Source of the DNA: Botryllus schlosseri
Lineage: Eukaryota
Length of the DNA: 64,000 bases
Assembly (NCBI GenBank): GCA_051294905.1
Contig: CM119371.1
Location: 39,248,001 to 39,312,000, forward strand
Direction of reading: 5' to 3'
A model generated the notes under the pieces. It was given only the letters and a program-made list of their open reading frames with translations. It had not been told where the DNA came from and searched no databases. Positions 18,288-50,006 of this stretch are shown one piece after another. How positions within the stretch are numbered: position 1 is the first letter of the stretch; each line of letters starts with the position of its first letter. Position numbers and translations under genes: made by a program.

Positions 18288-18631
18288 CTCACGAGTCCCT
18301 ATGTCACATTTCGAAAATGCTATTTTCAGAGCTTTGCGGCGCTTCGTTACGGAGATACGAGTTATCAGGGTATAGAATCTGTTTCACGGGTCCCTGTATC
18401 ACTGTTCCGGTATCGTGACTCAGTGTGGACTTTTGCATTCTCGGAATTTGGCGTCAATGTCACCGACTTTGTCCTAATACTAATTCGACCAGAGTGAAAC
18501 TGCAACACTGCTGTCGGATGAGTATAATGTGGTCCATGCACAGTGCACAGGTTCCACATTTGTTGTCTTTGATTCTTACAAAAAACTAAACCTTTGTTTG
18601 AAATAGGCTGAAAAAGAAAAGTATTTTTCAA

Positions 18632-19375
18632 TTGCTCTACCTCATGTACACAAAGCCAATCGGAGATATTTGCTGTCGCCATGGTTTCTTCCACCATTGC
18701 TACGCGGATGATACACAGGTCTACGGTCTTATAAGAAATAGCAATGATTGGGAGAGCGTGTCATCCAAGTTACAGCGATGTCTTATTGATATTGAGCTCT
18801 GGATGACACAAAATCGTCTCAAGTTAAACAAAGAGAAAACTGAACTCATCATTTTTACGCCAACCAGACGCAACATCGACCACAATCAATTCACCATCAG
18901 ATTCGGACCAGACACCATCCAAGCCAAGACCTGTGTACGTAACCTAGGTATTCACTTTGACGGCATGCTCTCAATGGAAAAACATATCGACCATACATCA
19001 AAGATCTGTTTCATGTATATCCACAATATCAGTCGAATCAGGAACTACCTATCTGAGGATGCATGCAAAGCCATAATACTGTCGCTGGTGATATCACGGC
19101 TTGACTACGGAAATGCTCTGCTTAACGGGGTAAACCAAAATTGCATCGACAAGCTACAAAAGATCCAGAACATCGCTGCTCGTTTGGTAACTCGGTCAAG
19201 GAAGCGTGATCACGTAACACCGATTCTTAGATCCCTACATTGGTTACCCGTGAAATTTAGTTCTGAATACAAGCTTCTTCTGCACGTCTTCAAATGCATG
19301 GAGGGAAGTGCACCAGCGTATCTTCGTGAGCTAGTGTCAATGTATAATCCCGGAAGAGCGCTACTCAGCGCTACT
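18632..19375 (+). mobile_element. L2/CR1-clade LINE reverse transcriptase fragment
   Basis: YADDTQVY catalytic motif, WMTQNRLKLNKEKTE, VRNLGIHFD, LVISRLDYGNALL, HVTPILRSLHWLPV. Confidence 0.92.
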
Positions 19376-19379
19376 CAGC

Positions 19380-21470
19380 GCCTCTCAGCAACTCACTGAG
19401 CGGAGCTAAGCTGAGGCAGAATAGAAGTGGTGAGAGTGAGTCGCCTTGGAAGATACCATTGCATATCTGAATTGTACAGGTTTCTGTTTCACCTTGGTCA
19501 TGTTTGATCAACAGTTTTGTATGCCAATTTTTCATTGAATTTTCAATAAATCTGATGATGATCGGATTCATTTTGTACATACGCATTGTTTTCAGTATCC
19601 ACGTGTGAGGGACTGAATCGACAGCTTTTTCGTAGTCTATCCATGCCATGCTGAGGTTAGTGTGTCTCCTCTTGCAGTTTTCAAGAATGGATTTGTCAAG
19701 GAGCAGGTGGTCCTTACAGCCAAGGGCGCCTTCCTTGCAACCTTTCTGCTCAGGCGGTAGAAGATTTTCTAGGTGTTTGTAGCTTCGTTTTGCCATGATT
19801 TTGGTCAGTGTTTTGAACATGGTTGTCAGGCATGTTATTGGCCTGTAGTTCTTGGCGTCCCTGGTGTTTTCATTTTTTGGAATAAGATAGGTGATCCCTT
19901 GTGTGAAACTGTGAACCAGGCTGGGATCTCCTGCGAGCTGGTTGAGGATAAAAGCTCAATGTAGGTCACCGCTAGGTAACTATGTGTTGCAGTTAGTTTT
20001 TTTAGCCAAAAGCTTTTGATCTGGTCAGGACCAGCTGCTTTCCAGTTCAGTGAACTTTTTAGGGCCTCCTTGATTTCTTGTTTTGTGATTTCGGACCATT
20101 GTTGTTCTGGTGTTTGTAGATGGTCAGTATGGAGGACTTGTATCCAATTTGCATTTGAGTTGAGCAATTTTTTGGTTTCCCATATTTTCTTCCAAAATGA
20201 TTCCACATCTGCAGTGGCTAGTATTTTGCTGCTGGTAATTTTTTGATTTGACTTTTGTTTCATCATTCGAAAAAATTGTCCAGGTTTGCGAGCAAATAAC
20301 AAATTTTGGCGATATTGTGTTTCTCGTTTTTTATATCGTTTCAATCGTTGTGCTTTGGCGCATATTCTCATTTTTATTTCTTCTTGCAACATTGTCACTT
20401 TTTCTGTTGACTGCAGTTTGGTTTGGTGCTCCAGTTCTATTCTTTTTACTTTATTTTTTACTTTGCGGGAAACATTTCCTTTTTTTAGTTTTGAGAGTAT
20501 CGCAACTTCACACCTTAGTTTTGCGATTTTGTTTTCAATTCTGCGTTGCCAAGCTGGCGTATGGCTTCCCCTTTTTTTGTTGACAGTTCTTGGTATTTTG
20601 CAGTGCCTTTCTGAGATAACTGCCGCAGTGCTGTAAATGAGGTTGTTGATTGTTGTCAAGGGACATTGTGGTCTTTCTCCTTGTTTGTCATTTAGAGTTG
20701 CAGGTAGTATGGTTTCTGTCAAAATTTTTTTCGCTACTGCAATATCAGTTTTCAGGTTCTTTGTAATTTGTAGGTCAGGTAACTGCACTCTGTCATTTAC
20801 ATTCAATGTGGATTTCATTCTGTCGATGATTTGATTTTTGATCTCCAATTCTAATTCCGTGTCTATGTCGCCATCTTTAGGTGTTGTTGATTCATTCGGG
20901 TGCCCGGTGGTATTTTGTAATTCTATTTCTGCGATGTTCGGGTCATCAAGTGATTGTTGTGGGTTCAGGTCATCTTGGCCGAATTGCAGTTCCAGTGCCT
21001 CAAAGTTTTCTATGTTTTTGTTACACATTTCTTCCTCGATTTCTGCGAGTTCTTGTTCAGATAATTTTTTATTACACAACGTCTCATTGTTGCCAAGGTA
21101 TTGGCAGTCATGGTTGGAGAGTTGTTTGTTCTCTCTTTCCATTTTTGAAAAGTTCCTTCGGTTACTCCTGCCGAGTTTTCAAATTTGGCTAAGAAGTAAC
21201 ATCTCATTATTTCTTTATACTCTTCTTTACTCCATCTGTGTCCTTTCTTTTTTTCTTTTGCAGCAGAGCTGTTTTGTGAGCCACAGTTCGGTGTTGCACA
21301 GGCGCCATGTTGAGAAATATCTTCTCTTTGGTGTTGCTGTGTAGTCGGAGCTGACGAGTCCTCTGGGGTCATCCGCTTGGTCCCAGGGCGGGTACGTCCA
21401 GGTGCGATATATCCAGATCGTTTCGCAGGCATCCACAGCAGTGATGCGTCAGTTCAGAAGTTAGGTTAAT
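19380..21470 (-). mobile_element. R4/Dong-like non-LTR retrotransposon, 5-prime part with frameshifts, truncated within RT
   Basis: PAWQRRIENKIAKLR, RLKRYKKRETQYRQNLLF, NWKAAGPDQI..FWLK, EQKGC..GCKDHLLLDK, AWIDYEKAVDSVPHTWI, GIFQGDSLSPLLFCL; the 5-prime end abuts a (TAA)n tract. Confidence 0.88.
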
Positions 21471-30018: not shown

Positions 30019-33000
30019 TCACTTAATTTCGAATAAATTTTGACAGTTGGTGCAAAACACCATTCCGGTCTTTGCATACATAATTACGTGTCCACATCGG
30101 GGACAGCTTTCCGGTCTGTTTTCTATCTGACAAACTGCGTATGCTTGCGCTCCTCTTTTTGCATTGAATCCTAAGGTGAAGTTCACGCGTTGCTTTGATT
30201 TAGCGTGATAGCTCATGAAGCGATTTTTTGTTGTGAATGGTAATTCCATGCGATTGCCGCGCATCTCAATTGTTCCCATCCACGTCCTCACGTCAATTAT
30301 CTGACCGTCAAATCTGTGGAGAGGCTGTCGCTTTTCGTTAGCATCATGTAATACAGACAGGTTGGTATCACCATTGAGATCCTTTATGAATTCGATAGGC
30401 TTTCGGACTATATTGGACCTGAATAGCCTCTGACAATCATCCAAACGTTTTTTGCACTTGTCTAATTCTGACCGATTCCCCGGTGTGTAATCCAGCAACG
30501 TCATTACGTATTGGATGATGTATCTGTACAGCGGAGCAAATGATCCGCCCTCATTCCTCATATCCCAGAGATCGGCATAGTGCTTAGCATAACGTAGTGA
30601 GGCTGGTTGCATTAGATTGCGCGAAATTCTCATCCAATCCTCCATGTATGGAGATATTTTTATGTGAGATGAATCTTCGTGATTGATGATATCTTCAAGT
30701 AACTTGATATATTCAGCATGTTTATATTCCGGTAAATTCTTTATTACATCGATATGTTGATTCCCCCCCTCGCATCTACAGGAAAGACGCATTAATGCTG
30801 CTCGACAACGTTTCGAGGTGAGTGATGTGGCCGAATCTATCCTCAACACAAAGTCCCACAAACGATCTTGAGCAGAAGCAAAACAGGACATGTAGTCATC
30901 TATCTCATTCTGGAATTGTAGCTGACCTTTTCCTCCTTCTGACAGCTCAATACATTGTTCGAAAAGATACTCGATTTCCGCGAAGGTGTCGAGAATAAAA
31001 TCCCACATGAAATGTAAAGAATGCTCCGGAGATGAGATCGTCATTAGATCGCGTGCATTGTGATTGAAACAGTATTTTGTTATCAGCAGACGGACCTTGA
31101 TCTCTCCGATGTAATCATGGAATCGGATGACACCTGAGCAGAATTTGTTCCGACTTTCTGCGAATACATTGACAGCTGCTAAAGCTTTCTCTTTTGCTTG
31201 TTTGAGTTTTCCGATATCCGGAACGTCTGTGCGGGGATACTTGTTTGAAATCATATGACGTAATATTTCAAAATAGGCGAAGCCAAGCATGTTTCGTACT
31301 CGTTGAAGCTGCTCATCATCCGTCGGCATATTACCGCTGGTACTACTCTTCCTCAAATTGTCACTTCTGATTTTTACAGCTTCATTTAGAGCATTTTCAG
31401 CCTCTGTATTATAGGACGTGTTCGTGAACTTCTTGGCCACAAATCTCCCGAAGTGCGCATGAAATTCCGCATTATACGGGAATGCTTCCACCAATAGCTT
31501 GAACACTCCTCTCTGCTCATCTTTGTTGCCAATATCAGTGATAAGTCGTGAGAAAGCTGATTTTCGCCCGGCCATGTCATCAACATACTTCCCGTTGCGG
31601 ACGATGAATACGTTCGTCAAAATGTCGATGAAATTACTTTGTAGGGTATCTCCAAACCTTTCGTGTTCTTTCATGCATATGATGAAATAACGGGCCAATT
31701 CTGCAAGATTTTGACAAGCGATTTGGCTAAGTTCTGGTTTATTTTTATCACTTGGAATGCGGCCAAGATATTGTTCCAGTACCTCTTTTGCAACTAGGTA
31801 GTGTGATATTCTCCACTCCTCGCCATCGGAACATTCGCGTATTAACTGTTGTCCTAATCCCGGGATATCATTTTCCAAGATCACCCTTTCAGTTTCATTT
31901 TTTTCCAGAATGATTGAAAAGAATTCTGCTGGCAAATCTCGATTTCCGTAGTAATTTGTCAATGATAGCATCGCAACGACGTGGTGCCATTTGCTCTTGA
32001 TGTCTTTCAGTCTCAGATGATTTTCGACATACTTTCCGATCCCTCTGAAATCTGAGTTGAAAGCAGTCAGTCCATATTCAAACAGAGAGTGTTGGTTGCC
32101 AGATAGAGTACTTTTTGTCAGTTTTTCCAAGGATTTTTTGGTTCCAGCTGTGGCACTTCGTAGAAATGCAACTTCGAAGTTATGAGCTTCGTTTGACGAA
32201 ACTCTATCATGAAGAAAAAAATGGTCATTGTTGTCTTGTTGGTTAATAATGTCGTAATTCCGTTCCACCTGAATGATAACAATGCTTTCATCTTGGAACA
32301 TGCTCATAATATTTTTTGCTTCTTGACTGGACCGTCCATCGAGTAACAATAGGACGGGTAAGCCTGATATCTCAAGTATCTTCTCAAGTTTCTCCTTGAA
32401 GTCGTGTCTAAGTTCTATTCTCTTATCAAGGGCCAGGCAAGGAACTTCGGACCTGAAACTCCATAGTAGCTGTCGTCCGAGTGTTGTTCCACCACTTCCA
32501 GGGGAATGATGTAGGGTCACGATTCCTGTTTCACGATTGTTGACTAATTCCTGGATCCGTTGCTTTATTACATCGAATTTGACCCTTTTAACGGCGAATC
32601 CCCCATACTTCAGAACTTCCCACGTGAGATCTCCACCCTTCAAGAATTCGATTCCTTGGGCTTTAACTTTTTCGTCGTCAAACTCTGAGATAGGTCCTTG
32701 GAAAAACGATAGTGTTAGTACATGAAAATCCACGGTTAGCCATGCCAATATTTCTTGGTCGAGTTCACAAGATGATACTTATCCTTTATCGTCTTCTCCC
32801 TTCGATCTTGGCAATAGTGTGGCTTCAACGTCATGATCTACGGGAATCAGATCATCTTTCAAGCTTTCGATCCACTCACAAATTCTATTTAAAGGAGCGA
32901 CGATTGTTTCGTCTACTTGTTCCTTAGATACTTTGCTCATTTTGCCACTGTCTTGAACTTCCTTGGATAAGCAAAGTATAATCTTGATAGGCCTATTCCC

Positions 33001-33497
33001 AAAGCTTCCTTCCACTTTGGAAATGAAATCTCGAACATTCTCTTCCATTTCGTCATTGACATCATTATGATACCAAAGAATTACCATGGTAGCTGATTTT
33101 CGTCCCGAGCAAAATTTCGCCAACGACGAGATATGCTTTTGCAGTTGCCTTTTCACCTTTCTATTCCCACCTTCTGCAATGCCAACCCAATTGACTATTT
33201 TATCTCTGATTTCCCCTACTTCTTTTTGATCAGACGTCGTCAGAACTTCCAGACGACTTGTTGGTAATGATTGTCGTAAAATATTTAGCAAACCTGAGGT
33301 TTCATCGGTTTCTCCGTCAAAGTCAAATACTTTGCTCCAGGGTACTAAGGAAAGTGCGTTGTAACAGCTTTGATCAGTGGAAATATGTTTAACGCAGCCG
33401 GTCAGTACGTACAGTCTTTTTCTATCAAATCTTTCTACAGCGCCAAGAAAAACATCCTTGTCCCGGTCCGGGTCTTCCATTGATCGTACTAGCGATT
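30019..33497 (-). pseudogene. Last exon of the SAMD9-like gene: SIR2-like domain, STAND NTPase, helical/TPR-like region, OB-fold, Zn ribbon; in-frame TAA at 32779-32781
   Basis: SAMD9-family motifs in order: VPWSKVFDFD, EFLKGGDLTW, FAVKR, Walker A HHSPGSGGTTLGRQLLWSFR, Walker B LPVLLLLDG, WRISHYLVAKEVLEQ, C-terminal RVNFTLGFNAKRGAQAYAV. ORFs 32779-33480 and 30019-32748 are the same frame separated by one TAA. Acceptor TTTTTGTAG| at 33498. Confidence 0.87.
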
Positions 33498-33563
33498 CTA
33501 CAAAAAGTATTGCGTTATTTTATTGAAGAAAAAAACTGACAATATATATACCTCCATAAGTAC

Positions 33564-34944
33564 CTGTATGTTCTGCCGTTGGCGATATAATTTCAGGCTC
33601 GTTCGACACGTGACTTGAATTCTTTTTAACAAATTCCAAAATTCGGTCCGTTATTTCCTGAGCGTCTGGTTTAGGGCGCATAGGCTTCACTGGCAAATCG
33701 AGTAGCAATTCCGGGATCCTTTTCTTGTGTGCGTCGCGACAAAGTATCAAAGTGTTTTCCCTTGAAAAGTGCTCTCTCTTGAACACGTCTTTGTATGCAG
33801 GTTCGTTCAGATCGTTTTAAACGAATGCGGTGTTAATGAAGAATATCCTGCGAAATGTTTATGAAATGGATAAGTATAGGCCTACTTTCCATTGACCAAG
33901 AAAACTTTTAAAAAATGAGTATCATTAGGTATAGAAGGCTATTATCAGATCTTCGCGGTTTAAATGGAAATCTGAAGTATAAATATAGTTCAGACAGCAT
34001 CATCAAAAAACTTGTCTTGGAATACAAGTGCATGTTTATGTCTGTCGCAATTTGACGAATATTTGTCGTATGTTCGTGTATCTTGAAATGAATAAGCTGG
34101 AATGTTGGCATAGTAGCATAGGCTACTTATCTACATAGATGTAACATTCCAGACAAAGAACTCATGCTACTAAATTGGAGTTCTTCCACACTTGTCCACT
34201 TTGGTAGAACTTAGGAAGCTAAGAATATAATTTGAGACTTGACTTGGAATTAATTCATGACGCTAACGTTAGTGCGAATATGAGTCACCACGCAAGATTT
34301 GAAATTTGAAAACGTAACATTCAGTTATTCTAGACTAGATGTTACGGTGCAGCTAAAGGATTCAGGAGATTTTTCGATATCGAGAAGCCAATATCGACTT
34401 GATCACGGCAGTGCCGTAAATGCCTCACGTGGGGGTTTATATCACATTGTTACAAAAGTTACCAATAGCTTCATATTGAATCCCACTCAATTGATTTACA
34501 GCAGAGGCTGGACTGATATATCAGCGCCCAAATCTGCCTTATTATCATTAATCCAGGACCCAGATTTAAACACTGAAGTCCAGCAAGAAATTTCCGGGAA
34601 AATCCAGACATATCGCTACCCTTATTATCTGAGACCAAAGCATTGCCGACAATTCATCACATACCCGTTCGAGGTTTCGGAAATACGATGTCGATTATAC
34701 TTTTGTCAGTCGTCTTTATTAAAATCTAGAAATTTTGTTTTAACTTACTTGCATCTACTCGATAATGCACTGAAAACGGCTTGCTTCGTAGTTGAGTTAG
34801 CAGCATATGTGCATTGAATATTCAATCCCTTTTGTCGTAGACGACGTATAGCATCTGCAACTGGCTCCGCAACATTGCGGTGGCAAAAAATATGGGCATC
34901 ACTTCGTTCCTGCTGAGTCACTGCAACCGTTGGTGAATTGAACT
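33564..34944 (-). pseudogene. Two exons (34944-34749 and 33847-33564) encoding a divergent TIR-like domain; in-frame TAA at 33817-33819
   Basis: Phase-matched splice AA|GTAAGT..TTTCGCAG|G gives DAHIFCHRNVAEPVADAIRRLRQKGLNIQCTY..KQAVFSALSSRCKIFFINTAFV*NDLNE..NTLILCR..IPELLLDLP..QEITDRILEFVK; a 66-bp intron (33498-33563) then joins it to the NTPase exon in frame. Confidence 0.6.
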
Positions 34945-35386
34945 CTGAATATAAGCAAGATTTGCGAAGATGGTGAGCCTAATTCTCCATTACTACTCCA
35001 CAGATGTTGTGAGTTGGATGATGAGATGATATGGTGAGACGTATATAACGAAAACGTGATTCAATTGCGGATCTTTGTCGCATACAAAATATGTACCAAA
35101 GCAGTGTACGTACGTGTGCAAATCTGTTCACGGGTGCACATTATACAGTGTTTACCCGCGGACAAAACGTGAATTTGTTGGGACCATTTCTCGGATACAA
35201 ATAAGTAGCGTGCTATGTCAACGCACGATTGTTTGACGAAGGTTCTGTGCGTTTACAAATGTACATTTTACGTTATACACAAGCTACCGTTGAACGTCAA
35301 AACATGGAATCGTTCTCAGTTGTGAGTAGGACACTGTTGATAAAAATATCGATTTGAATGAAACAGCTTTATTTAAACCTATAGGC

Positions 35387-36253
35387 CAGGGGTGTCAAAC
35401 TCAAATTGCGTCGCGGGCTGGATTCAAGCCTTCAAATCGCTCGCGGGCCAGACCAGTCAACAGATTCCAAAATGTTACCTCGTGCTCTTGCTTTTCACTT
35501 GAATACCTTAAAAGCATGTACAGATAATACACAGATCATGGGGTTTTCAAAGTAGCAATGCGCAACCCCTTTTTCGCGAACAATGGAATTGTCAAAAATA
35601 CGAGGATTGTCTGGTTGAATACAGTTAAGAACCGCCAAAACAGTGACGCCAACGACGATATAAGTTGGCATATTCTTTACTATGCTCCCTTTGATTTAGT
35701 CGTAATCTGGCGTCAGCCCTGCATAAATGCGTTGTGAGCGATACAAAATATATTTAATTAAAAACGCGGACGTTGGAAATTGGTTTATTAGCATTAAACC
35801 GTGAGTCTGGTTTATCTTATGTCTGGGGATCTATTGGGTCGAAAGTGACACCGCAGTGCGATCATAGATATTTCAATTATATATATGTGCAACTAATATA
35901 TTTTCCATGTAAACTGCATATAACGGTTTCTCATCTGCATTTCGCTTCTGTATAAGTAGCTGCTTTTTGATCCATGTTTGTATAAAACTCAGAACTCTTC
36001 TTGAAATTGGATGTCGATTTCAATGACGTGTTATTAGTGGTAACTATAGAGTGAAATCAGCGCCGTTGTCGGGTGCATGGTTATAATGGGGCCAATGAAC
36101 ATTGAAGCAGTTCCTGCAAAATATCTCAACATTTGTTGCAAATGTGCTGGAAAATATAGGAATTTTTCAATTTACTAAGAATTGCTTCGCGGTTCGGATA
36201 AAATCGTCTGTCGGACCGGATGCGGCCCGCGGGCCGTATGTTTGACACCCCTG
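35387..36253. mobile_element. hAT (Charlie-like) MITE in an intron
   Basis: Perfect TIRs CAGGGGTGTCAAAC / GTTTGACACCCCTG, GCGGGCC subterminal motifs; TSD degenerate. Confidence 0.85.
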
Positions 36254-37913
36254 GTATATACCTAACAACAATCAATCAGCGATAACGATTGGGAAATTGT
36301 ACATTAAATTGCAGCTGATCAAATGTTGCGGTTTATGAATTCTTCATCGCAGCGAGTAACACCTTAGAGCAGTGGTTCTCAACCATATTGTCTTCGCATA
36401 CCCCTTTTAGGCCATCGCGGACCCCCGCCGATCCCAAAATAAGTTTTTGTTCTAATTTAGCTCGATTATCGTGCAGTGGTGTAGCCGTGTCGTGTATCGT
36501 GTCTTGTGCAAATATTAACTGTAGGCTAGTGATAAAAAGCAATAATATGACTTATCATGAAAATAGCATCATAATATATGTGGGAATTGTGTATATTTTC
36601 ATCCTTTCAAAGCAAATATTGCAGCTTCATCTCTTGAAATACATGACCGTGTCCTGAAAATCCGCGCTTTCGATTTTAAATGCACGAGAGCCGAAAATAC
36701 GTTAGCCACAACAATGATAAGTGAAGCGAATAAAATAACAGCGTGTAACGCTTACGACAACACCTTTGATCGCATATCGCATGATCGCATCTTAGGCCCA
36801 ACAACAACGACAACAACAACGACAACACATAACCAGCCCAATCATTTCTATCCAGCAGCTCATCTCGAAGTTATTCTGGGATAGCACAGCACTGGAGAGA
36901 ACAGTTAGAGATTCCGTGCTGAGGTTTCAATTCCTTTGGTACAGATTAGAAATGAAACTTTAGGAATGATCATTTCAAACGATTGTCCACAAATAAAAGA
37001 CTCTACGGCAGGGGTTCTGAACTCGCGGCTAGCGACATCTTCCAATATGAACGCAATTACTACTGGCAACGCAAATCCACTATGACCTCACAATTGAATA
37101 TTCCTGACGTCATGGCTTAAAAAAAAACTATAAAAACATGTTTTAAAAAGGACCTTGTTTTAAACATGTTTGTTTTAAATTGATTTTTGTTTTAATTGTA
37201 ACCCTAACCATATACCGAATATCATCTATCATTGGCGGCACGCAGAAGGCCGGGAACGGAGACAGGCGCCGCTGCTAACTCACCATTAATAAATGATACT
37301 GATAATAATATTATTATCAGTTGCGGCTCGTTACGTAGGACAACTGAGGGCATTGCTCCACCTATAATTCTTTTTGAAACCAACAATTAAAATTTATCGA
37401 TGGAGAAAAATGAATATGGCGAAATTGAGGGGGAAAGAGCGGTACAATGTGCTAATAAATAAGAATTGATTGGCATCAAAGAATTATACATGATTGGGCC
37501 ACAAAGAAAAAAAAGGTTCTCTCAGTAGCGGGGAACTTTGAGATTTTATTGATTATATACCGTCGACGGATGGCATTTTTCGCTGGCATATCGACACCAC
37601 AATTGTAGCAAAGGCTACTATCAATGTACATTCTCACGGCACACTAGTTGAAACGCACTACTCTGGACTATAGTACTGATATTAATTCCACCACTAACAT
37701 ATAAATGTCACAAATCACATTACGCCAATATTGCTAAAAGTTGTCGCGCTATCCGCCGCGAAATTGTTAGTCTCTGCTCCGCTATCCGATCTTGAGGGAG
37801 CGGCCGCTGTTATCTGTGATCAAAGGAAGCGTAATATCTGGCATATGACTTGAGTTTCAAGTCACAGTAATTTCCAAATTCAAATACATTAGATATATAG
37901 TTAAGAATTTCAC

Positions 37914-38603
37914 CTTCCGCTTGACCATCCTTGATCTGTTCTCTCCTTTGTGTTTTCTCAGAGGTTTTTGGAACTTGAGAACTTTTTGTGATGAAGACAT
38001 TCTCGGGTCCAATATCTTAAATGAGAAGCAATAAAACAAGCACCTATAAATTCTCTCTAAGTTACCAAGTACCATATATATCGATATCGACAAAGTATTA
38101 CTCGGTAGCGGTAGCAGTAGAATTTTAGACTCTATATGACCCCCATTGCTGTCCCTTTTCCGTGCCTACCACGCAGCAATACTGACCATGGGTTATTTGT
38201 GGCGAAAGAGAAGATTGTCATTGATTCAAGAGAAATTTGGCTAGCTAAAGTACAATCGTAACCAACGCCACAATGTTGAATAATTCGACTGGACGCTGAC
38301 CTCTTATCAGTCAGCAGGTAGGTGGACGACGGTGACATGTACATCTGAAGAGTATATCGCACCCCCTCAAATAGTCGGCACCCCTGCATCAGATGTATTC
38401 ACGCACATGATTCGCAACTCGATGCATATATTGATATTCGGAGAGCAGGCCAGATTATGAAGGTGAATGGTCATGGTCAAGTTATCTAATAATTGTATCT
38501 TTATTTCGAGTAGGCTTTTCAACTGATTTCTTGGTTGATTCATCATTTTGTTATGAGATGCTTTTCAACTTACTTCGTTCTTTCTTTTGGCTCTTTTCGT
38601 TTG
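37914..38603 (-). CDS. Two linker exons (38603-38574, 30 nt; 38015-37914, 102 nt) of the kinase-SAMD9-like gene
   Basis: Both are phase 1-1, open and bounded by AG/GT (donors GTAAGT and GTGAAA); they encode ANEKSQKKER and NIGPENVFITKSSQVPKTSEKTQRREQIKDGQAE. Confidence 0.6.
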
Positions 38604-38701
38604 CTAGTTCGCACGGAGAACTTTTTGTATTGCCGTCATGTTGAATGCCTGAACGTGAGTAAATTTGGTAAATACATTCGTCGCAAAATGACAATACTTA
38701 C

Positions 38702-39523
38702 CATCGAAAAAGATATCATCGCGTATTTCTTTAGCAGTAGGCCGTTTTGCGGGATCGTGTTCCAACATGCGTTCAAGCAAATGTTGCAATTTGTACCTTT
38801 TGTAAGATTCATCGGGAAAAATTGGGATGCCAGATAAATCACGCTCCTTATTTTCCTTTATGTTTACGGCCCATAATAATGGGTCAGGACCGAAGGGGTG
38901 ACGTCCATGCGTAACGATGAAATAGGCAATTATGCCCATGGGATAGATATCCGCTCGATATCCGAGCTTCTCCACTTTTGTATATGTCTCAGGAGCTCTA
39001 AACCCATCGGTTCCAGCACTTGATTGTGTCACGGTGACGTTAGTTGCGTCGTCCGGGATTTCTTTGCTGATTCCAAAATCGGATACCTTGATCCTTTTCT
39101 TGTCTTTTGAAATGAGAACATTGCTAGGCTTCAAATCTCTATGCATAATTCCGCATTGATGGATATGTACCATTGCCATAACCATTTGTAGAAAGAACAT
39201 TAAGGCCTTATGGAGGTCAAACTCACTTTCCTGTGTATATTCATTAAGATTTTGCGAACATCGCTCCATTGCGAGGTATATTCTCGGAATGAAACCCGGT
39301 AAGATTCCGGAAGTAACAATTCGCATGACGTATGGGTCACTGTCCATCTTTTGTAAAATTTTAATCTCATTCTCAAGTTCTTTTGTCTTGCGCACAAGTT
39401 TAATTGCGAGTTCCTGCTTATGGCCATTCGCATGCTTCTGATATCCGAAGTAAACTTCTTTCCCTTTACGTATCGGTTCAAGAATGTTCATCCATATGTT
39501 GCTTCCGGGAAGGTTAGTACAAC
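38702..39523 (-). CDS. Exon encoding an IRE1/RNase L-like Ser/Thr protein kinase domain
   Basis: LAIK, alpha-C Glu (ENEIKIL), YLAMERC, HRDLKPSNVLI, SDFGISK, GTDGFRAPE, DIYPMG..YFIVTHGRHPFG; donor G|GTAAGT at 38701 and acceptor CATAG| at 39524. No KEN ribonuclease domain follows. Confidence 0.9.
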
Positions 39524-40189: not shown

Positions 40190-43100
40190 CGTCATGAGAC
40201 ACTCCTTCGTGTACATTTTCACTTCCTGTGCTCCGTTTTCCGTCGCAGTTTTCACCTACATGTACCCCACAACGTTAATTCATTGAATTCGAACCAATCC
40301 ATTTTATTCGGAACAATTTCTACTTCAATATGACTGGCTGCGTGGCGAGAGTTGGTACTTAGCTGTCGTCGCGGCAATGATATCAATGTATTACTTCTGA
40401 CGCAAAAGGTCTCCGACATTCAAAGAAGTTCAAATACCTAATTCTAGCGTCACTGTTCAGTTTAATCTCCTATATTCCTGACAAGGGGGCTTCAATAGAG
40501 CATTCCAGTGAAAAACAAAGATGTTAGGGTTTGGTGTTAACATTTCGGAATCATTTGACTGGTCCGGCTCGCAAGCTATCTAATAGAGGATTGAATACGG
40601 ACCTCGACGCTCGACCCCAGTTTAGTTCGACCCGCTGCTATAAACCTATAATCAGCATTTTACCTGCTGCATTCGCGGACTAAGTCCTATCCATACAGGT
40701 CAAGGAAACGCTAGTAATGTGTGCTCACACTTATCCAAAGCAACTATAGAAAGTACCGACACCCATCATCAACAGCGCAACGTGTCCCTAGAGCCCTACA
40801 CAACAAGCGGGCTAAGCCAATCGATATCGTAATAATCTGATATATCAAATGAATACAGCTACCTTGACGGAAAGATCTCTCTATACCAGTGGTTCCCAAA
40901 CAGTGTTGAATTCAATGGTTTCTGATGGGGAATAGACGCATTTGTTCAAAATCATATACAGGACTGTCGACATATTCACGGAGACACATGCGCAATTACC
41001 GTTACCATTTAACTGCTCTGGATCGAAAACTATGTTGCGTGTTGTTCACAAAACCTCCTTTTCAACTAACTCTGGATTGCCAATGATGGCCTCACAAACG
41101 CATCCAGCACGACTAGTTGGACATGAAATAACGCTTTTGCGAAATTTTGAGCGTTACTGGCATCGGTTCGCAATACGTTTTATGTTGCAGTTATAAGCGA
41201 TTGTCTTGCGTACTGGTGTGGTTGTGAAGACAAAAGTGCTGGGTAGTGGAAAACAGGATCGTAACTGTCGCACTCAAAACCCTCCAATTGGGGGGCGAGC
41301 TCGAATGGGCCCAAAATTATTTCGTGAATTATCGTATTTAATTAAAGTATTTTTTTTAATTCATGCCACTTTTTCAAAAAATTTCCACGGTGGGTGCACG
41401 ATTTAATATTGCCGAATATCTGGTTATTAGGTACCCTTCCCCCACGAAAATACGCAGAATTTATAGAAATGGCCACTTGGGCGTCGGGCATTACTGCGCC
41501 ACGACGCACCAAGGCATATGAAGTTATAGGCCATGTAAGATGCAACTCGGAGAAGTGTACCAGAACGATCAGCAGCGAGAAGACCATGGCCGAAAATGAA
41601 GGCCCTTGTGGTGATCAAAAACTTCGATAGATATAGGCTACAATATACATATATGTTTAATTGGTTAATGGCTGGCGCCGAATGTTCCTATCTTGGCGAT
41701 CTGAACCCCATAGGACAAATGCCATCCCGCAAGGAAAAATTATCTGCCAGTAAAGCAATAACAATTTGGAATCTTGTGTGTCTTTTACTTTTGGCGATCT
41801 CCATATCTTTGACATAGCAGATATAGGAGGTCACGAAATAGCATAATGTAACGAAGTCAATATACTAATGGAAACGCCCGATGATGTTCAATTCTTATTT
41901 AGGGGTCCTACCTTTTCCAACACACCTCACTCAGCTTTACCGGTAAATCTAATTACGTGACAGAGAGGGGAGGCAAAATTGACAGCAAAATATATGCAAT
42001 TCCCGATCATATTGGCCGACTCAAACACGAATGATATAAATTTCTCGCGCTTCACGCGTTTAGTCAAAATAAGGCGATGCACTAAACAATAGACTCAATG
42101 TAGCTATAACTTGCAGAGAAAACGCGTACAGGCTCATCGGGGCTGAGAGGGTTCTGGGGGCCTAAGACCAACGTTTTGGGCGGGGCAGAAAAGGTGCTAT
42201 TACGGTTCTGGTGGGGAATGAAGACTCGGAATAAATCTGAAGTGGGGAATGAAGACAAAAAAGTTGGCAACCTCTGCTCTATACGTTGAATGACAATGCA
42301 CGAAAATTTGTAGGGCCCAAATGCATTCTGTAGACACAGTTCTACCGCTACAAGTGAAGGAAAGGCTGGTAATTTGTGTACTCATCAATACCGAACGACT
42401 ATAGAAAGTATTAACTGCGCAACGTTTCTCTGCGACGCGATTGCACTTCGAAACACAAGCTCATTTCCCAGCTGGGCAGTCACTCTCGCTGCGCTGTCAC
42501 TCATTTGCTCCTCGGTAGAAATGGATGTAAAGTGTGGAGTGCCTCAGGGCTCAGTTTTAGGACCGACCCTATTTTTGATCTACATCAATGACATTATCAA
42601 CTGTTCCTCCTTTTATACTACACTGTTTGCCGATGATACCCATCTTTTTCTTTCATCCGATACTATAAGCAACCTACAAAGTTCTGTGCAGAGTGAACTT
42701 ACAAAAGTCTCTCAATGGCTTGCTGCTAACAAACTAAGTTTAAATACCGATAAAACTGTGATGATGCTCTTTAATACTGCTTCTGATAACCTTACTGTGA
42801 ATCTAGATAATAACTGTATCTCACTGTGTGACTCAGCAAAATATCTTGGAATCATCATTGACTCTAAATTGTCATGGAAACCGCATATTGCTCATACCAT
42901 AACACAGCTTTCTAGATGTGTAGGTGTAATGACAAAACTCAAGCACATAGTTCCTAGATCTGTGCTTAGGACAATTTACTTTTCGCTTTTTTACTCGTAT
43001 CTACAGTATGGCATAATTGTATGGGGGAATGCTTGTACTTCACATTGTTCTAAAATTCGTACCCTGCAAAACCGAGCCATGCGTTTGATGGCTGGCTTGC

Positions 43101-46100
43101 CCCAACGAACAAGATTATCCCAGTACTACCGCAAATACAAAATTCTAAAATTTGACGATATTTTTACATTTGAAGTAGCTAAATTTATGCATCAATATTT
43201 TTCAAATGAATTGCCTCCTGTGTTTAATGATTTCTTCGCCCTTGCTCAAACTGTTCACTCACATAATACCAGATTTTCTTCCCAAGGTAACATCTATTTT
43301 CATCGACCCACAAGTAACCTCACAAAGAAATCGATCGACTATGCCGGTCCTGTCATATGGAATGCTATACCCTCATCAATACGGGACCTCCCATACCACT
43401 CCTTCAAAAAGGAATTATTCAGTCACCTCCTCTCCCGTTACCAATGATCCGCTTGTCTCACACCAATTTTTTTAGTTTCTTCAGTATTTTATTTTTATGC
43501 TGAGCTGAATTGATTGATCCCAACCAATGCATCCAAATTTATGACACGATATCTGTATTTGTTAATGCAGGGTGTGATCAGACTAGTTGACCCTACCCAG
43601 AGTCATATCGGTCACACCCTGTCCTATACCGTTAAGTTCATTTATTGTTGTTTCATGTGCCAATGATGTTTTCTTTACGGTTGGACAAATCAATAAATAT
43701 CTCTCTCTCTCTCTCTCAGCTACGCTCTCGTTTCGCCAGACAGCATTGCTGCGTCACTATGTCACTCTGTATAACAAGGGAATATTCGAGGCTGATTGTG
43801 GGAGTTCAAGTGTCAGGAGCGGAATGACATTTATATTTTCGTAATCAGTACAGCGGCAGCTTTCGATTGATACCCGTTTTATCAAATTTGATGCTCGATA
43901 AGCCGGTCAAAAATAACCGTCAAATTTCCTTTATCCAAATGAAAAATGTGACGTATACCAATTTCACTGAGCCGTGTGATTTGATTGTGTCCACACCATA
44001 TAGGACACTATGTTCAATCGAAAACCAAATTGCAAAGAATGGCGCAACAATGCAATAATAAAAATGAACGCTACAGGCAAAGTCATCTGTACCGGTAGTC
44101 ATTACAAAGAAGAGAGAAAATTAAATTATACAATACACATAAGACATTACACAGACAAATAGCGGTATAAAATTTTGGAATTTTTTTAAGAATTGTATAG
44201 AAACTGTTTCTGCCGGCATAAATTAGGATTGGTCAATTTTATGATAGTCGACTTCAACACAGACATATGGAAGGCAGATTTACATTCAACCAGGACCGTA
44301 ACAGCACTTCGTCACCCCCCCCCCATAAGAAAAAACGTTTGTCTTGCCCCCCCCCCAATTGGATGATAATCCAAGCTTCTGGGGGGCTTGTCCATCAGTT
44401 TGGTCGTGTTTGCTGCGACTTGTCATTGACAATTATTGTAGTGTTTAGTGACACGACCGTTACATCGCCTATACGCGCGAAGCGCGAATATTTTCAGCAG
44501 TTCCTAACTAAATCGGGCAATATTATCGGGAATTGCATATATACTGCTATCAATTTTTTATCCTTCTTGCTCACGTAACAGATTTCCCGGTAGATCTGAA
44601 TGAGTTGTCTTGGAAACTGTAGGGCCCGCGCGTAAATAATATTTAAACTATAAGCATATTCGGGTGATATAAAAACTTCATTACAGGATATTGTTTCGTG
44701 ACCTCCTGTCTGCTATGTCAAAAGATATTGAAATCGCTCAAACGTACTAAACTAAAAGAGGGACAGGATTCCAAATTGGTGTTTCTTCACTGTCAATTAA
44801 ATTTTCCTTTGGGGTAGGCATTTGTCTTGTCGGGTTCAGATTGCCGGGACAAGAACATTCGGCACCAGCCTTTTACGCGCCTATGGACAATTAAACAAAT
44901 AGGACTACGTATATATAACGAAGTTTTCGGGCGGCATAAGGGCAGTCATATTCGGCCTCGGTTTTCTCGCCGCCGATCGTTCTGGCACACTTCTTGGATT
45001 CGCATGTTACATGGCCTAAAACTGTGTATGTCTCGGAGCGTCGTGGTGCGGTAATGGCCGACGCCGAAATGCCCATTTGTATAAATCATGCCTATTTTTC
45101 GTTTTTTTTTAGGGGGGGGGTAGAGTACCCAATAAGCCAGATATTCGGCAATATTAAATCGCGCGGAGCGCGAAAATATTTTTAAAAGTTGCAAAAATGT
45201 TCAAAAAGTAACTCTATAATTTATGCTAATTTACAAAATAATTTTGGGCGCACTTCGAGCTCCCCCCCAAAAATTTGGAAGTTTTGGATGCGGCAGTTAC
45301 GGTCCTGTATTTAGCAATCACAGTGAACATGCCGTCATTGTAATGACTGGCACAGACATGATACTTCATAATATGTTGGCCGATTGCTGAATTCAACGCT
45401 GTAACCTCGTTATACGAACCAGAGTCGACCGCTTCCCTAAACCACAAGTACAGAACGATCGATAGGTTAGTTTACTGAGCTAATCGATTTAGGCATATTT
45501 TGGTTCCCTCGTCCAGCCAACCGCAAAGTTGTGCGTCCCACATACCGACTATCACAGTCTCATGGGAAATTATATATAATATTACTCTTTTAAAAAGCAG
45601 GAAACACATCCTTGTGGGTGTGAGGCTTGAGCGGTCTAGTCATAAACACCACTCGAGGAATGAGCATAAAATAGGACGATTGCATAGTTGACCTAATCTG
45701 ATAAGCAAAGCGGTCTGACACTGACACACGCGAATGGAAGTGTATGTACACTGTACCGTAGTACCAGCGGCTGTTTGAATTGCCATATTTTCTTTGTAAT
45801 TCAGTTGCCCAATCTGGATATCCATTGTCGATCAAAATGGACTTGATATTATAAATTTCCACCACAAGCCGAACATCGGGACAGATCATTAGCGCACGGC
45901 AGTGAAGAGCCCGGAAAAACCTAGCAGTTGGTCAGTACCGGGATCCAAACTCACTTCGTGACTGCAGCGCGTAACCAACTGCGCCACTCGCTTCCCGTAT
46001 AAATATATAATTTCAAAGAGTCGGCAGTAAATATAGCTTCGAATATTACATTAGATATGCATACATTTGTCGCAATGAAATTTAGGTTTAATTTTGAATT

Positions 46101-49100
46101 TTTAAGGTTCACCGCCGCGCAACACTTATTTTAAAGTTTTATCGGTCCGCTAAATCAAAAAGGTTGAGAACCACTGGATTAGAGAATCCAAGGAAACATT
46201 GCCGTCGTCTTGACTGTCTAAAATTGCAAATGTGTCATCTACATTTTTAAAATACATATGCGGTTTGCTTACATTAGAAAAATCGCTTTCTTAGAAACCA
46301 GCGAATAAATTCGTCAACCTAGGCCCAAAAAGTGACCCCATGGCAACATCATCAATTTAGCGATACATATTGTTGTTAAAGCTTTACTTTCATGTCGATT
46401 TTATAGTCTGTAGTCTGAAAAGAAAATGGACAGTCATATTTTGCGGCCCTCGACGTGATTTGAGATTTCAGAAGAAAACTGAGAAAACGATTTTGAAATG
46501 CAGTTTCAAGTATTGTTGTGGTTGTTTCGAAATAAGCTATTCTCATGTGCCCAACATCACTATTCGTCACATAGCTAAAACGGCTTTGGAGATGACAACA
46601 GCATTCCATCGAGGGAGAATAATCTGCTGGAACGAATGGGCTGGGCATATTGCCTTGACGTGCAATGACCAAAACACTGCCAAGATCGAGACGCCTATAA
46701 AACGGCATACGGCAGTGGTTCACTGGGCTGCGCGCTCCTCTTGTGGGGGCGTGAAAGCATCTGAAGAGGGTGCGGGGCTTCGGTCAACTGAAAAATTTTT
46801 CGCGCTCCGCGCGATTTACGTCAAGTTTGGTTTTTGTGGATGTTCCGTGTATTTTGTGTATATCAACAGTCATAACCTTCAATGCCATGAAACTATCCGT
46901 TGGGATTGGTAGCAATCTGGTTGCATTTTGTTATATGACGATAAGGGGGGGGGGCGAAAGTTTTCAGTATCATTATGGGGGGCGTGTCTAAAAATGTTTG
47001 AGAACCACTGGCTTAGGGCTTCCCCACAAGATCAAACTTTACGTGGAGATGGTATTTCAGCTAGTACCGTATCTCGCTAGCCCCAATATCGAGTCCTTAT
47101 TCGCTGAAAAGCGTTTCCAGTATCGTGCACAGCTCAGACTTCAAAATAAAATGAAAAGATTGATATGATTTTTTGTTGTAGTTGTATTTCTTTGATGAAA
47201 TATTACTTCTTTTGTGGTCACTACGCCCATTGCCTAAATTAAGTAGCACGGCGTTATACTGACGTAGAGTTCCGAAACGATGGTTGCCTAGTTTATACCG
47301 ATATTGAATTCATGCGGCCCGCGGCCGCTGCGAAATTTGAAAAGTGGCCCGCAACCCGATTTGAGTTAGCGACCCCTGGTCTATACTATGATTATAGTGA
47401 GATTATTGTGATAATTGCTATAAAATGTTCAGTAGTACTTTTGCATATGGGAAGCGAGTGACGTAGTGGTCACACAGATCACTGCAGCAACATCACTGGT
47501 AACTGATTCTAGTCTTGGCTTTGTGAGGACTCTACGAGTCGGATATTTATCTGGACTTCTCATGGCCGATCCTCATGTAGGCTACTAACCGTGTCCCGAA
47601 AAGCCCAAAACTAATCGAGAATGTTCGACCAGTCAGTAGCAAATACTCCAAATTTGGTCTCACTGAAGAGTCTAAAAGTGTATGATGGGACAAGTGAGCG
47701 ATTGAAAGTCTTACGCCGATGAATAATACAATTGCGAAACTTATGAACTGTACAATTATTAATTTCTACTTAAGACCGATAAGAGCCGGAAATCATCTCA
47801 CGATCAACAAGGGAGGATAAATGGAGATCGAGAGAAGTCGACTGTTAGGTATATTCGAATATAGACAATTAATTAGCGTTAGAAGCTTACCAGATCCACC
47901 ACCAGACGTTGATATGTTGACTGCACTGTTGTGGATTCTGAAATATTTTATAAGATATATTTCCCCATAAACTATAACGTCTACCAACAGTATACGGCAG
48001 TGGTCGGGAACCTATGGCTCGCGAGCCATATATGGCTCTTTCGGGTATAGGCTCTTTGACTTATTTTTAATTTTGTACTTAGTTTTATCGATATTGCAGC
48101 AACGTGTTTGTAAATTTTCATAACGGGCAGAATAATTATTCTCGTGACAGGATAAACATGTATTTAAGAGGTCAAGACAATGGCGTATCCAGGATTAAGG
48201 GCTTGGACCCATTTACAAAATCCTCAAATTTAAGTTGCTGTAGCGCCAGCGACCGATATCCCTCGCGAATTCGATGTACCGGACATCGCGCGCTGCGTAA
48301 TCTTGGATTGCGCCATGCGTTGGTTGATAAGAGAATAGCAGACGTCTGTATGACGATCTAGTTTACAAATACACATTGTCCTCCTAATCTACGCCGAGAA
48401 ATGAGCTGTGAAGGGCATGTTAATTACAAATTCAAACTACAAACAACGCTTCGTTATCCACTGTTTTCATTGGTAAGTCGGCCTAGCTTACTATTAGCCT
48501 ACTGCTTTTAAAATGTAGGCGTGTAGTGCAACGCTTATGTTACCGCCGAATACTTTAAGAATTGATAACTCGATCAATTCTTAGATTTTCGGAATCAGGG
48601 CTATAGTTATATTAAATGAATATCAGTTATTATAGATTCTGAGCTACTTACGATGAATTGCATTATCGCAGGATGATTAGTAGCCTACCAGTTTTTACAG
48701 AGGACACATGGCGCCCACGACAAATCCCATGTACTGAGTTCGAATTAGTACTACCATGACATCACGAATTTTCAATTGTGACGTAACAAGTGGTTCACAT
48801 GTATGGCTCTTTGGGAGTTAAAATGGACAATATATGGCCAACATGGCTTTTCAGATGAAAAAGGTTCCCGACCACTGGTATACGGACTTCCGGCAGCTCT
48901 TGCTCGTACGCGAGGATTCAAAATATTATTGCGTACCGCGTGTTTGACGTACCCAAAATGAGAGCAGTTACGTGGTACATTGCACTTATTGCTCACGAAT
49001 GAATGCTCTTAGTAACTTAAGGCCCGTGTACCTGTACATAGTTAGATAAGGTGGTCTCGAAGATGAATTGTTTTGGATTGACGTCACGAGAAGGCTTGCC

Positions 49101-50006
49101 TACGTTTTAAAAATATGATCAGGTTTACATGGGCATTGCCCATTGGGCAATATATTTGTCGCAGTTCGAGAGTTACCGCCGTTCATGATTGATATTGAAG
49201 GTTACGCTGCACCTTTTGCGGCAACCAGAGATACATTTACCAGTTCTTGAATGACTAATTGACTATTTACACGAGCTCTATTCAAAGAACTCCTTTTCCA
49301 AATCTTGCGTACTATACGATTAAATCGTCAGGTTGCCCAATGAAAAACGATGCACATCAAATTTGAACTTTTTCCAACCGGTAACCGCGAATCTCTTACA
49401 CCTATCAGTTTAGAAATTTAGAATTTATTTTAAAAGATTTTTGAATTTGTTTTTTCAAATTTCACTGGGTAACCCATCAAAATGATACGTTGTCTACAAT
49501 GCAAAACAAATTTGACTCAATTACAACCGGTAGAAGCCACGTTATTTTAGGTTTTCGGTGATAATTCTGGGATTACTTACCGACAATGCTGTTTTTTTTT
49601 TCAAATCCAAAATTTATAACTGCAACAACTTCGCTTCTACCGGTTGCAATTGATTCAAATTTGTTTTGCATTGTTTATGTTGACAACTTATCAATTTCAT
49701 GGGGTATCCAGTAAAACTTTAAAAATTAATATTCTACAATGAGTTCAAAATTTCAAAACTGTAAGAGCTTCGCGATTACCGGTTGGAAGGATTCAACTTT
49801 GGTTTGCATCGTTTTATTAGCCAACCTGGCGATTTAATCATCTAGCAAGAAAGATTTGAAAAATAGTTTTGTAATAGTCCTAATTCGCGCAAAATATTTT
49901 TTGATACTTCTGCTATCTCTTCTTTTGAAAATCCATTTTTTTCATTTACTTACGTGATTGGCTGCATATTTCCACTTTTTTTCATTTCGTCATTACCCTC
50001 TGCCAT
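40190..50006 (-). CDS. Candidate 5-prime coding exons of the kinase-SAMD9-like gene (50006-49954, 47937-47891, 40255-40190)
   Basis: ATG exon MAEGNDEMKKSGNMQPI with donor GTAAGT (phase 2); TTTCAG|..|GTAAGC exon TIHNSAVNISTSGGGS (phase 2 to 1); TAG|..|GTGAGT exon (phase 1-1). All are phase-compatible with the kinase exon; no homology support. Confidence 0.45.
41254..42210 (+). mobile_element. hAT-like non-autonomous element; inverted sister copy at 44291-45307 and partial copy near 23175-23640
   Basis: TIRs CAGGATCGTAAC / ATTACGGTTCTG, and CAGGACCGTAAC / GTTACGGTCCTG in the sister copy; interior homology in opposite orientations. Confidence 0.75.
42510..43718 (+). mobile_element. L2/CR1-clade LINE, 5-prime truncated, open RT C-terminal ORF, 3-prime UTR and (CT)n tail
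   Basis: GVPQGSVLGPTLFLIYIND, FADDT, WLAANKLSLNTDKT, KYLGIIIDSKLSW; AATAAA followed by (CT)n at about 43701-43718. Confidence 0.93.
47998..48877. mobile_element. hAT (Charlie-like) MITE, complete
   Basis: TIRs CAGTGGTCGGGAACCT / AGGTTCCCGACCACTG; exact TSD GTATACGG at 47990-47997 and 48878-48885. Confidence 0.9.
49280..49880. repeat. About 600-bp fold-back palindrome
   Basis: GATTAAATCGTCAGGTTG..TTCCAACCGGTAACCGCGAA is mirrored by TTCGCGATTACCGGTTGGAA..CAACCTGGCGATTTAATC. Confidence 0.8.

Follow-up and report, generated by a model that had tools for sequence, protein, structure and literature searches.

Introduction

The SAMD9 proteins are the closest described relatives of the protein reported here. 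They carry a STAND NTPase in which a His residue lies upstream of a GGT/S Walker A motif (PMC5445408 and PMC13600222, available text). The N-terminal heads described for the family are SAM, CARD/Death/Pyrin/FIIND and a bacterial kinase (Mekhedov et al. 2017, PMC5445408, available text), and the same text treats AlbA_2 as a SAMD9 core domain that has been lost in some members. In SAMD9, an antiviral protein of humans, according to the available part of Mou et al. 2026 (PMC13600222), the core is closed on ATP, and its opening leads to oligomerisation, by which the flexible N-terminal tRNase domains are brought together. Plant TIR-NLRs and TeTIRs are NADases with a catalytic Glu, joined to ATPases of the NB-ARC or NACHT type; the TeTIRs span 200-350 residues and lie directly upstream of NACHT (10.64898/2026.09.21.753143, available text). 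For catalysis, TIRs depend on a Glu in helix alphaC (10.64898/2026.04.20.719644, available text).

A TIR-headed SAMD9 was not found in the literature from titles and the beginnings of abstracts; figures and bioRxiv supplements, such as the table of ~71,000 TIRs of 10.64898/2026.04.20.719644, may bear on it. The word TIR is absent from the whole text and three text supplements of PMC5445408, the available text of the TeTIR preprint (10.64898/2026.09.21.753143) makes no mention of SAMD9, and the terms TIR, kinase and tunicate do not occur in the available text of Legrand et al. (preprint and PMC12680541). The pairing of TIR and SAMD9 was not found in print, and head swapping in SAMD9 and the pairing of TIR with STAND proteins are themes already known. 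In the present study, we describe a tunicate locus in which a predicted TIR-fold head precedes a SAMD9-type core.

Results

A TIR-like segment divided between two exons

The window, by which we mean the whole stretch of 64,000 nucleotides from Botryllus schlosseri that was analysed, is animal DNA with spliced genes and many repeats. An earlier note on this DNA had proposed that a TIR-like domain was split over two exons and invisible among the open reading frames, and had quoted seven peptides. All seven were found in order on the minus strand:

34900-34880, minus strand: DAHIFCH, peptide of the TIR-like segment
34870-34817, minus strand: AEPVADAIRRLRQKGLNI, peptide of the TIR-like segment
34786-33820, minus strand: KQAVFSALSSRCKIFFINTAFV, peptide crossing the intron
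33816-33802, minus strand: NDLNE, directly after the TAA at 33819-33817, which sits between FINTAFV and NDLNE
33756-33736, minus strand: NTLILCR, peptide of the TIR-like segment
33717-33691, minus strand: IPELLLDLP, peptide of the TIR-like segment
33660-33625, minus strand: QEITDRILEFVK, peptide of the TIR-like segment

The exons and introns of this part of the gene are as follows:

34749..34944, minus strand: exon, linker and first half of the TIR-like domain (predicted betaA, alphaA, betaB and alphaB), domain start at ~34909
33848..34748, minus strand: intron splitting the domain, 901 nt, GT-AG, phase 2, ends GTAAGT...TTCGCAG
33552..33847, minus strand: exon, second half of the TIR-like domain (predicted betaC to alphaE) and linker, domain end at ~33613
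33498..33551, minus strand: intron, 54 nt, GT-AG, placed from splice signals and frame, with no RNA joint seen
30019..33497, minus strand: last exon, SAMD9-type core (SIR2-like region, STAND NTPase, putative helical repeats, OB-like end and C-terminal zinc ribbon)

The two exons (34944-34749 and 33847-33552) joined in frame between GT-AG signals and gave a segment of 132 residues with a TAA in its middle, as the proposed division over two exons required. The domain was also hidden in the way described: the first exon yields no open reading frame of 80 aa, and the part after the stop appears alone, in a 98-aa frame. Among the 28 frame-keeping GT-AG pairs close to the junction that were scored against the homologue from Styela clava, the proposed pair tied for the top score (66.6 bits), gave the highest identity (29.5%) and required one stop, against three in the tying pair.

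Four of 24 sequencing runs (X1, X6, X9 and X23) were compared with the window. X6 and X9, from two studies, are not recorded as RNA and were treated as such solely because their contigs follow exon ends. It was observed that X9 contig 20 ceases to match the genome at the TIR donor (34748); the 131 letters that it has left would explain the depth measured across the following exon (2.20 expected, 2.2 seen). The 34749-33847 joint itself was not among the 15 contig joints listed, out of 166. A tblastn search within the 64-kb window matched only the gene itself and revealed no further copy. The exon structure and the pair scores, with the alignment to the homologue given below, confirmed that the split-exon observation was more than a product of chance.

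Predicted fold of the head

The joined 132 residues aligned to residues 38-165 of an intact S. clava protein, XP_039249109 (LOC120326828; P0003), with 29% identity and an E value of 1.7e-17. This protein is named SAMD9-like in UniRef/nr, and the fold was modelled on its domain, not on the window's own joined segment. The S. clava domain was searched against 1.84 billion representatives, which returned four further homologues. One of them, P0008, is like P0003 a full-length SAMD9-like protein and agrees with it in head and core. The other three, P0009 (138 aa), P0010 and P0011, are short proteins or fragments that share the degenerate TIR, each of which may be a stand-alone TIR or merely a gene call the size of an exon.

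An AlphaFold2 prediction for the S. clava domain, from an alignment of eight family rows that included two window pieces and no known TIR, reached a pLDDT of 89.6 and a pTM of 0.86, with five strands alternating with helices. All 17 Foldseek matches of this model at E<=0.001 were TIR domains or TIR-bearing chains, among which were TLR1, TLR6, RUN1, MAL, IL-18R, SARM1 and MyD88. VIA-align gave TIRs in the top 14 of its 50 rows (best Z 13.4, rmsd 3.3 over 133 residues), and the best non-TIR flavodoxin-like fold there had a Z of 10.7. Besides SARM1, plant TIRs and TIR-STING were found among the fold matches. By ESM features, TIR clusters scored 0.91-0.92, behind one unnamed cluster at 0.94. A sub-threshold Pfam TIR match was obtained in one of the four new homologues (P0009, E 0.0074, 16.5 bits against a cut-off of 21.3).

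Sequence profiles gave a different picture. No match to Pfam TIR (PF01582) or TIR_2 (PF13676) was obtained in the window pieces or P0003. A three-row profile matched TLR2 weakly (E 0.65-0.94), over the pattern from betaC to the Ile-Pro after betaD, and this match was not reproduced with the eight-row profile. With hhalign, the comparison set consisted of seven bacterial TIR_2 matches (the shortest of eight was left out) and 56 ThsB-like proteins; bacterial TIRs scored 15.6, less than the highest of 60 shuffled controls (16.4), and nothing in the set rose above shuffled or reversed controls. Neither phmmer of the S. clava domain against the PDB nor the eight-row profile found a TIR, and the ESM Atlas returned no usable match for the window's first exon piece alone. 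A single-sequence AlphaFold model of the S. clava domain was discarded as poor (pLDDT 42.6); with it, Foldseek found nothing at E<=0.001 and VIA gave only thioredoxin-like rows with Z<5.

The TIR assignment of the earlier note therefore stood on structure prediction of the homologue, two fold searches and language-model features, and found no significant sequence profile behind it. The check it had named beforehand divided in the same way, with TIR matches to the S. clava model by Foldseek and no significant match by profile. We considered whether the head might be another flavodoxin-like fold, such as a SEFIR domain, a decarboxylase wing, a receiver or a MilB-type hydrolase. The missing TIR profile counts for this reading, as do the non-TIR rows of VIA (arginine decarboxylase, Z 10.7; MilB, 10.5; prokaryotic SEFIR, 10.0) and a Foldseek match to lysine decarboxylase at E 1.2e-3. 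However, the best matches of both fold searches (17 of 17 and the first 14 rows) were TIRs, and the ESM features and the Pfam hint in P0009, which are independent of the model, agreed on TIR, so that another fold appears very unlikely. The S. clava model showed the five-stranded parallel flavodoxin-like core of the TIR-fold superfamily and matched TIRs above other folds. Taken together, the model-based results strongly suggested that the segment has a TIR fold, and by its sequence the head is classed as TIR-like, outside PF01582 and PF13676 membership.

The best fold matches were animal adaptor TIRs (TLR1/2/6, MAL/TIRAP, MyD88 and IL-18R) and metazoan TIR-STING. The head differs from these in its low identity (8-20%), which is beneath Pfam detection, in having no conserved BB-loop Pro-Gly, and in its placement on a cytosolic STAND sensor instead of a membrane receptor.

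The catalytic glutamate and the role of the head

The catalytic register was taken from a sequence alignment to TLR2, not from superposition. The Glu of TLR2 WCKYE, which we take to be equivalent to the catalytic TIR site, aligned 12 positions past the end of betaC. Positions 11 and 12 after betaC were P/A in the window and H/G, H/G, H/L and H/L in the other family members, and thus Glu was absent from both positions in all five sequences. The earlier note had offered the Glu of NDLNE as a candidate catalytic residue. This Glu falls at position 10, two before the TLR2-register site, and is replaced by H, R, Y or F in the four relatives. Since no family member has Glu at the site and the residue of NDLNE is not conserved, the candidate was not borne out, and NADase activity appears unlikely from the alignment. 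His occupies position 11 in four of the five family members, and the window has Pro there. Adaptor TIRs of the TLR/MyD88 type are marked by homotypic TIR binding and by a Pro-Gly motif in the BB loop; this motif was not conserved in the head alignment, which weakens a MyD88-like docking mode.

An enzymatic head would be a TIR NADase or a nucleotide hydrolase that is switched on by SAMD9 oligomerisation, with catalysis through the Glu of NDLNE or through the His that four relatives share near the site. The retention of this His at position 11 in four of five members fits such a reading, and so do the matches of the model to SARM1, plant TIRs and TIR-STING. Many non-TLR animal TIRs retain Glu and some are active (10.64898/2026.04.20.719644, available text), and TIR-like NADases (TeTIR) head animal STAND proteins (10.64898/2026.09.21.753143, available text). 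However, positions 11 and 12 are without Glu throughout the family, and the window's position-10 Glu varies as described, with Pro in place of the others' His. We therefore judge both the activity and its proposed residues to be unlikely.

The TIR-fold head might instead have no signalling partner and serve as a structural or autoinhibitory cap, or as a decoy for pathogen TIR-binding proteins, in which case the output would arise elsewhere in the protein or at the kinase. The head has changed more quickly than the NTPase (38/123 against 116/251 identical residues in comparison with P0003, and 21/46 against 197/251 with P0001), the catalytic Glu and the BB-loop motif are both missing, and P0002 starts headless at the SIR2-like region, though it may be a fragment. 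These observations favour a cap or decoy, whereas the retention of the head at the N-terminus in relatives of just 27-35% identity speaks against it, as does human SAMD9, in which the N-terminal domains are flexibly linked effectors outside the closed core (PMC13600222, available text). We regard the cap or decoy, and an output from elsewhere in the protein, as rather improbable, and favour a docking head without catalytic Glu.

The protein shares with plant TIR-NLRs and TeTIR-NACHT proteins a design in which a TIR-type head sits on a STAND switch, and like them it would be activated by induced proximity. None of the marks of a TeTIR was found (200-350 residues, adjoining NACHT, RWG loop, catalytic Glu); the head has 132 residues, no Glu and no RWG, and a SIR2-like region separates it from an ATPase of the SAMD9 type.

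The SAMD9-type core and its relatives

The core matched four relatives among 5,156 candidates, namely two unnamed proteins at 74% (P0001) and 46%, S. clava XP_039249109 and a flatworm SAMD9-like protein (P0004). The S. clava protein aligned from the TIR to the end of the model, with 35% identity over 1,336 aligned columns, and at 36% in the search with the core. The nucleotide-binding motif was found at the following position:

32508-32482, minus strand: Walker A HSPGSGGTT, SAMD9-type, with the upstream His and GGT

The H, P, G, S, G, G and T columns of this P-loop were invariant in the family alignment. A five-protein profile matched SAMD9 structures only (six of six PDB matches, E 1.5e-16). 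A short stretch of the SIR2-like region aligned weakly to SAMD9 (i-E 8.7), and this region of the window protein had no Pfam match. Sub-threshold TPR matches were obtained in P0003 and P0008, and Pfam gave none in the window protein. The AlbA_2 nuclease had no Pfam match in the window, P0003 or P0008; the flatworm relative P0004 carries it. With a STAND NTPase, the upstream His, a GGT/S Walker A and homology to the family, the window protein is classed on its sequence as SAMD9-like and AlbA-less.

Compared with SAMD9/SAMD9L (human structures 9zjr and 37ht), the likeness consists of the HSPGSGGTT NTPase, with its significant structure match, and of an apparently shared succession, in which a variable N-terminal head is followed by a SIR2-like region, the NTPase, putative helical repeats and an OB-like end. 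The window protein differs in lacking SAM and the AlbA_2 tRNase, in place of which it has the TIR-fold head, and in its extra C-terminal zinc ribbon and two stops. S. clava XP_039249109 is alike in head and core, with 29% identity in the TIR-like part, and differs in being intact, starting 30 residues before the TIR, having no kinase and carrying a head without Pfam annotation. Searches with P0003 against plasmids (tblastn) and a pattern scan of bacterial genomes found nothing.

Three observations concern the relatives. The zinc ribbon (CxxC...CxxC, 30019-30110, minus strand) lies past the OB-like region, and three of its Cys are invariant in all five aligned proteins. Residues 60-90 of P0001 seem to continue across the counterpart of the 54-nt intron and meet no stop there, and P0001 is thus probably a gene call on genomic DNA or the product of a retained in-frame intron. 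In the SAMD9-like protein XP_018668123.1 of Ciona intestinalis (PMC5445408, supplement 1, rows 53-54), the SIR2-like region begins at residue 215 and the first 214 residues have no assignment, which is about the length of the TIR head with its linkers.

The upstream IRE1-type kinase

Upstream of the TIR exons, the following features were placed:

49954..50006, minus strand: predicted first coding exon, with ATG at 50006, prediction only
47891..47937, minus strand: predicted second exon, 47 nt, prediction only
38702..39523, minus strand: exon, IRE1-type Ser/Thr kinase, with Lys, HRD and DFG kept and no KEN RNase downstream
38574..38648, minus strand: exon, 75 nt, from 75 extra letters of X9 contig 22
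37914..38015, minus strand: exon, 102 nt, donor 37914, in frame to the TIR exon; also the last exon of a kinase-only transcript
34979..34990, minus strand: in-frame ATG at 34990 with TAG at codon 4, a possible decayed start of a kinase-less form

The resulting gene model has eight exons from 50006 to 30019, with all introns GT-AG, and reads in one frame of 1,689 codons that encodes the Ser/Thr kinase, linkers, the TIR-like segment (residues ~379-510) and the SAMD9-type core in this order. The kinase was closest to IRE1 (E 7e-26), and the match stopped at the kinase end. No KEN ribonuclease was found after it, where the next exons are short linkers, and in this the protein departs from the kinase-KEN proteins IRE1 and RNase L. 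With bacterial kinase-headed SAMD9 relatives and Avs5 it shares an AlbA-less SAMD9-like core under another head. An N-terminal kinase would be a further likeness to the kinase-headed relatives if the long isoform exists; here, the kinase is IRE1-like, spliced and followed by a TIR, and may or may not be linked to the core.

In X9 contig 22, the kinase exon is connected to 38015 by the 75 extra letters, and X6 and X9 contigs run through donor 37914 to 37577 and 37523. Such read-through would give a kinase-only product of 400 residues, with a stop at 37812-37810 and a poly(A) signal, AATAAA, at 37550. The kinase might thus be a separate gene, with the TIR as the true N-terminus, as in S. clava, and the kinase-TIR joint absent or minor. 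Apart from the passage of the contigs across the donor, the AATAAA is the sole one in 37913-37300, and no contig across the joint was needed to account in full for the X9 depth in the flanking bins (9.29 and 4.84 expected, 9.29 and 4.85 seen). The start of X9 contig 20, at 35053, is 109 nt upstream of the TIR acceptor. An in-frame ATG precedes the first TIR strand by 30 codons, which is the spacing of the P0003 start, and P0003 and P0008 are without a kinase.

On the other side, donor 37914 and the acceptor are canonical and keep the frame, and translation from the upstream ATG would meet a TAG at codon 4. X6 contig 14 starts exactly 30 nt ahead of the donor, the mark of a graph branch with words of 31 letters, which we take to be the assembly word size of the run contigs. 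Intronic contigs are present in X6 and X9, and the read-through could therefore stem from unspliced RNA. Searches by word index for longer proteins that carry the head returned P0003 alone and no intact kinase-TIR protein, which is weak evidence. On balance, we put the chance of a kinase-TIR fusion slightly above even and that of a separate kinase gene just short of even. The TIR-SAMD9 pairing is independent of the kinase link.

Premature stops, alleles and expression

The earlier note had recorded the stop within the domain, which was correct, and had missed a second stop downstream and the position of the domain at the head of a SAMD9-like protein, which relatives have intact. The two internal TAA codons of the 1,689-codon model, 442 and 770, are as follows:

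33817..33819, minus strand: premature TAA 1, codon 442; Lys in P0003 and P0008; present also in the X1 contig
32779..32781, minus strand: premature TAA 2, codon 770; X1 contig with GAT (Asp), X6 and X9 with TAA; P0001 with Asp

Of the 132 TIR residues, 63 precede the first stop, and since this stop falls 265 nt upstream of the last exon junction, decay of the long transcript would be expected. We considered whether the gene might be functional despite the stops, through read-through or through splicing that avoids the first stop. In favour of this are the transcription and splicing of the locus and the existence of stop-free acceptor choices, for example from donor 34749 to 33775. However, two independent TAA codons would need to be bypassed, the second of them 716 nt into the last exon, and relatives carry sense codons at both sites. 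At 47-53 bits, the seven stop-free pairs fell short of the 66.6 bits of the proposed pair, and they remove the strand and helix at the centre of the domain. X9 contig 20 matches one base beyond the donor, which fits the 33847 exon (first base G) and not 33775 (A). A functional gene on this haplotype is accordingly most improbable.

The X1 DNA contig, which may come from the source sample of the window, spans both stops and was found to keep stop 1 and to have GAT (Asp) at stop 2. In X6 and X9, TAA was seen at stop 2 at low depth (3.2 and 5.2). In the allele comparison, which covers 40 of 102 difference rows, 15 codons of a diverged stretch differed between the X1 contig and the window, 9 of them silently, 5 in the amino acid and 1 by the stop. 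Because an Asp allele exists at stop 2 and the haplotypes differ mostly at silent sites, the sequences suggest constraint during the divergence of the alleles and a recent loss. The RNA run X23 (bulk, recorded as RNA), of which ~6 in 100 was covered, had no exon reads and is silent on other tissues.

It was also noted that two of the three codon positions distinguish the stop-2 alleles, TAA and GAT. Among the differences listed, the 15 of the X1 contig cluster in 31886-32914 and none lies in the next 2 kb; this clustering hints at recombination or gene conversion.

Proposed explanation

We consider it reasonably probable that the two exons encode a predicted TIR-fold head without catalytic Glu ahead of a SAMD9-type core, that this head serves for docking in intact relatives, and that the copy in the window is cut by stops and likely non-functional. 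By analogy with human SAMD9, the core would rest closed on ATP, and would open and oligomerise upon infection or stress. In intact tunicate members, the oligomerised core might then cluster the N-terminal TIR heads, and the clustered heads could nucleate a TIR-TIR assembly with a partner, either an adaptor or an active TIR enzyme. Such an assembly would replace the tRNase output of SAMD9, and if there is a long isoform, its kinase would be brought together as well. On the window haplotype, translation would halt at the first stop and the long transcript would be a target of decay, leaving no functional sensor.

A wider proposal is more tentative, and we would not expect it to hold in full. Sea squirts may have a lineage of SAMD9-like antiviral sensors in which the tRNase head was swapped for a cryptic TIR without Glu that nucleates TIR assemblies; in B. 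schlosseri, the gene may further have gained an IRE1-type kinase by read-through splicing, and recently killed alleles may be segregating. If this is true, the Glu-less TIR-SAMD9 protein would be an animal counterpart of the TIR-NLR design, and segregating killed alleles would be as expected of a costly, self-activating immune gene.

The significance is limited by the known themes and by the broken copy in the window. Within these bounds, the range of heads on SAMD9-type sensors would be extended by a TIR, in the invertebrates most closely related to vertebrates. S. clava XP_039249109 offers an intact natural test case for the SAMD9 core as a general proximity switch with a swappable output. 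Since the head is invisible to Pfam, similar heads may have been missed elsewhere.

Other features of the window

A 177-codon stop-free frame at 34284-34817 (plus strand) runs opposite the gene, mostly inside the intron that splits the TIR, and has no Pfam match. Between the kinase and TIR exons, at ~35390-37250, lie high-copy repeats with contig depth in the thousands, and within this interval is a putative element of ~870 nt, bounded by inverted ends close to 35390 and 36255. Non-LTR retrotransposons are represented by reverse-transcriptase fragments at 18602-19399 (plus strand), 19371-21453 (minus strand) and 42314-43447 (plus strand), the last of them within the 8.4 kb predicted for the second intron of the gene. 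The C-terminal dimerisation region of a hAT transposase was identified at 61780-62316 (plus strand, E 8e-10). A BTB-BACK-Kelch gene at 2884-4583 (plus strand) is read in two overlapping frames (2884-4161 and 4101-4583) and is thus probably frameshifted.
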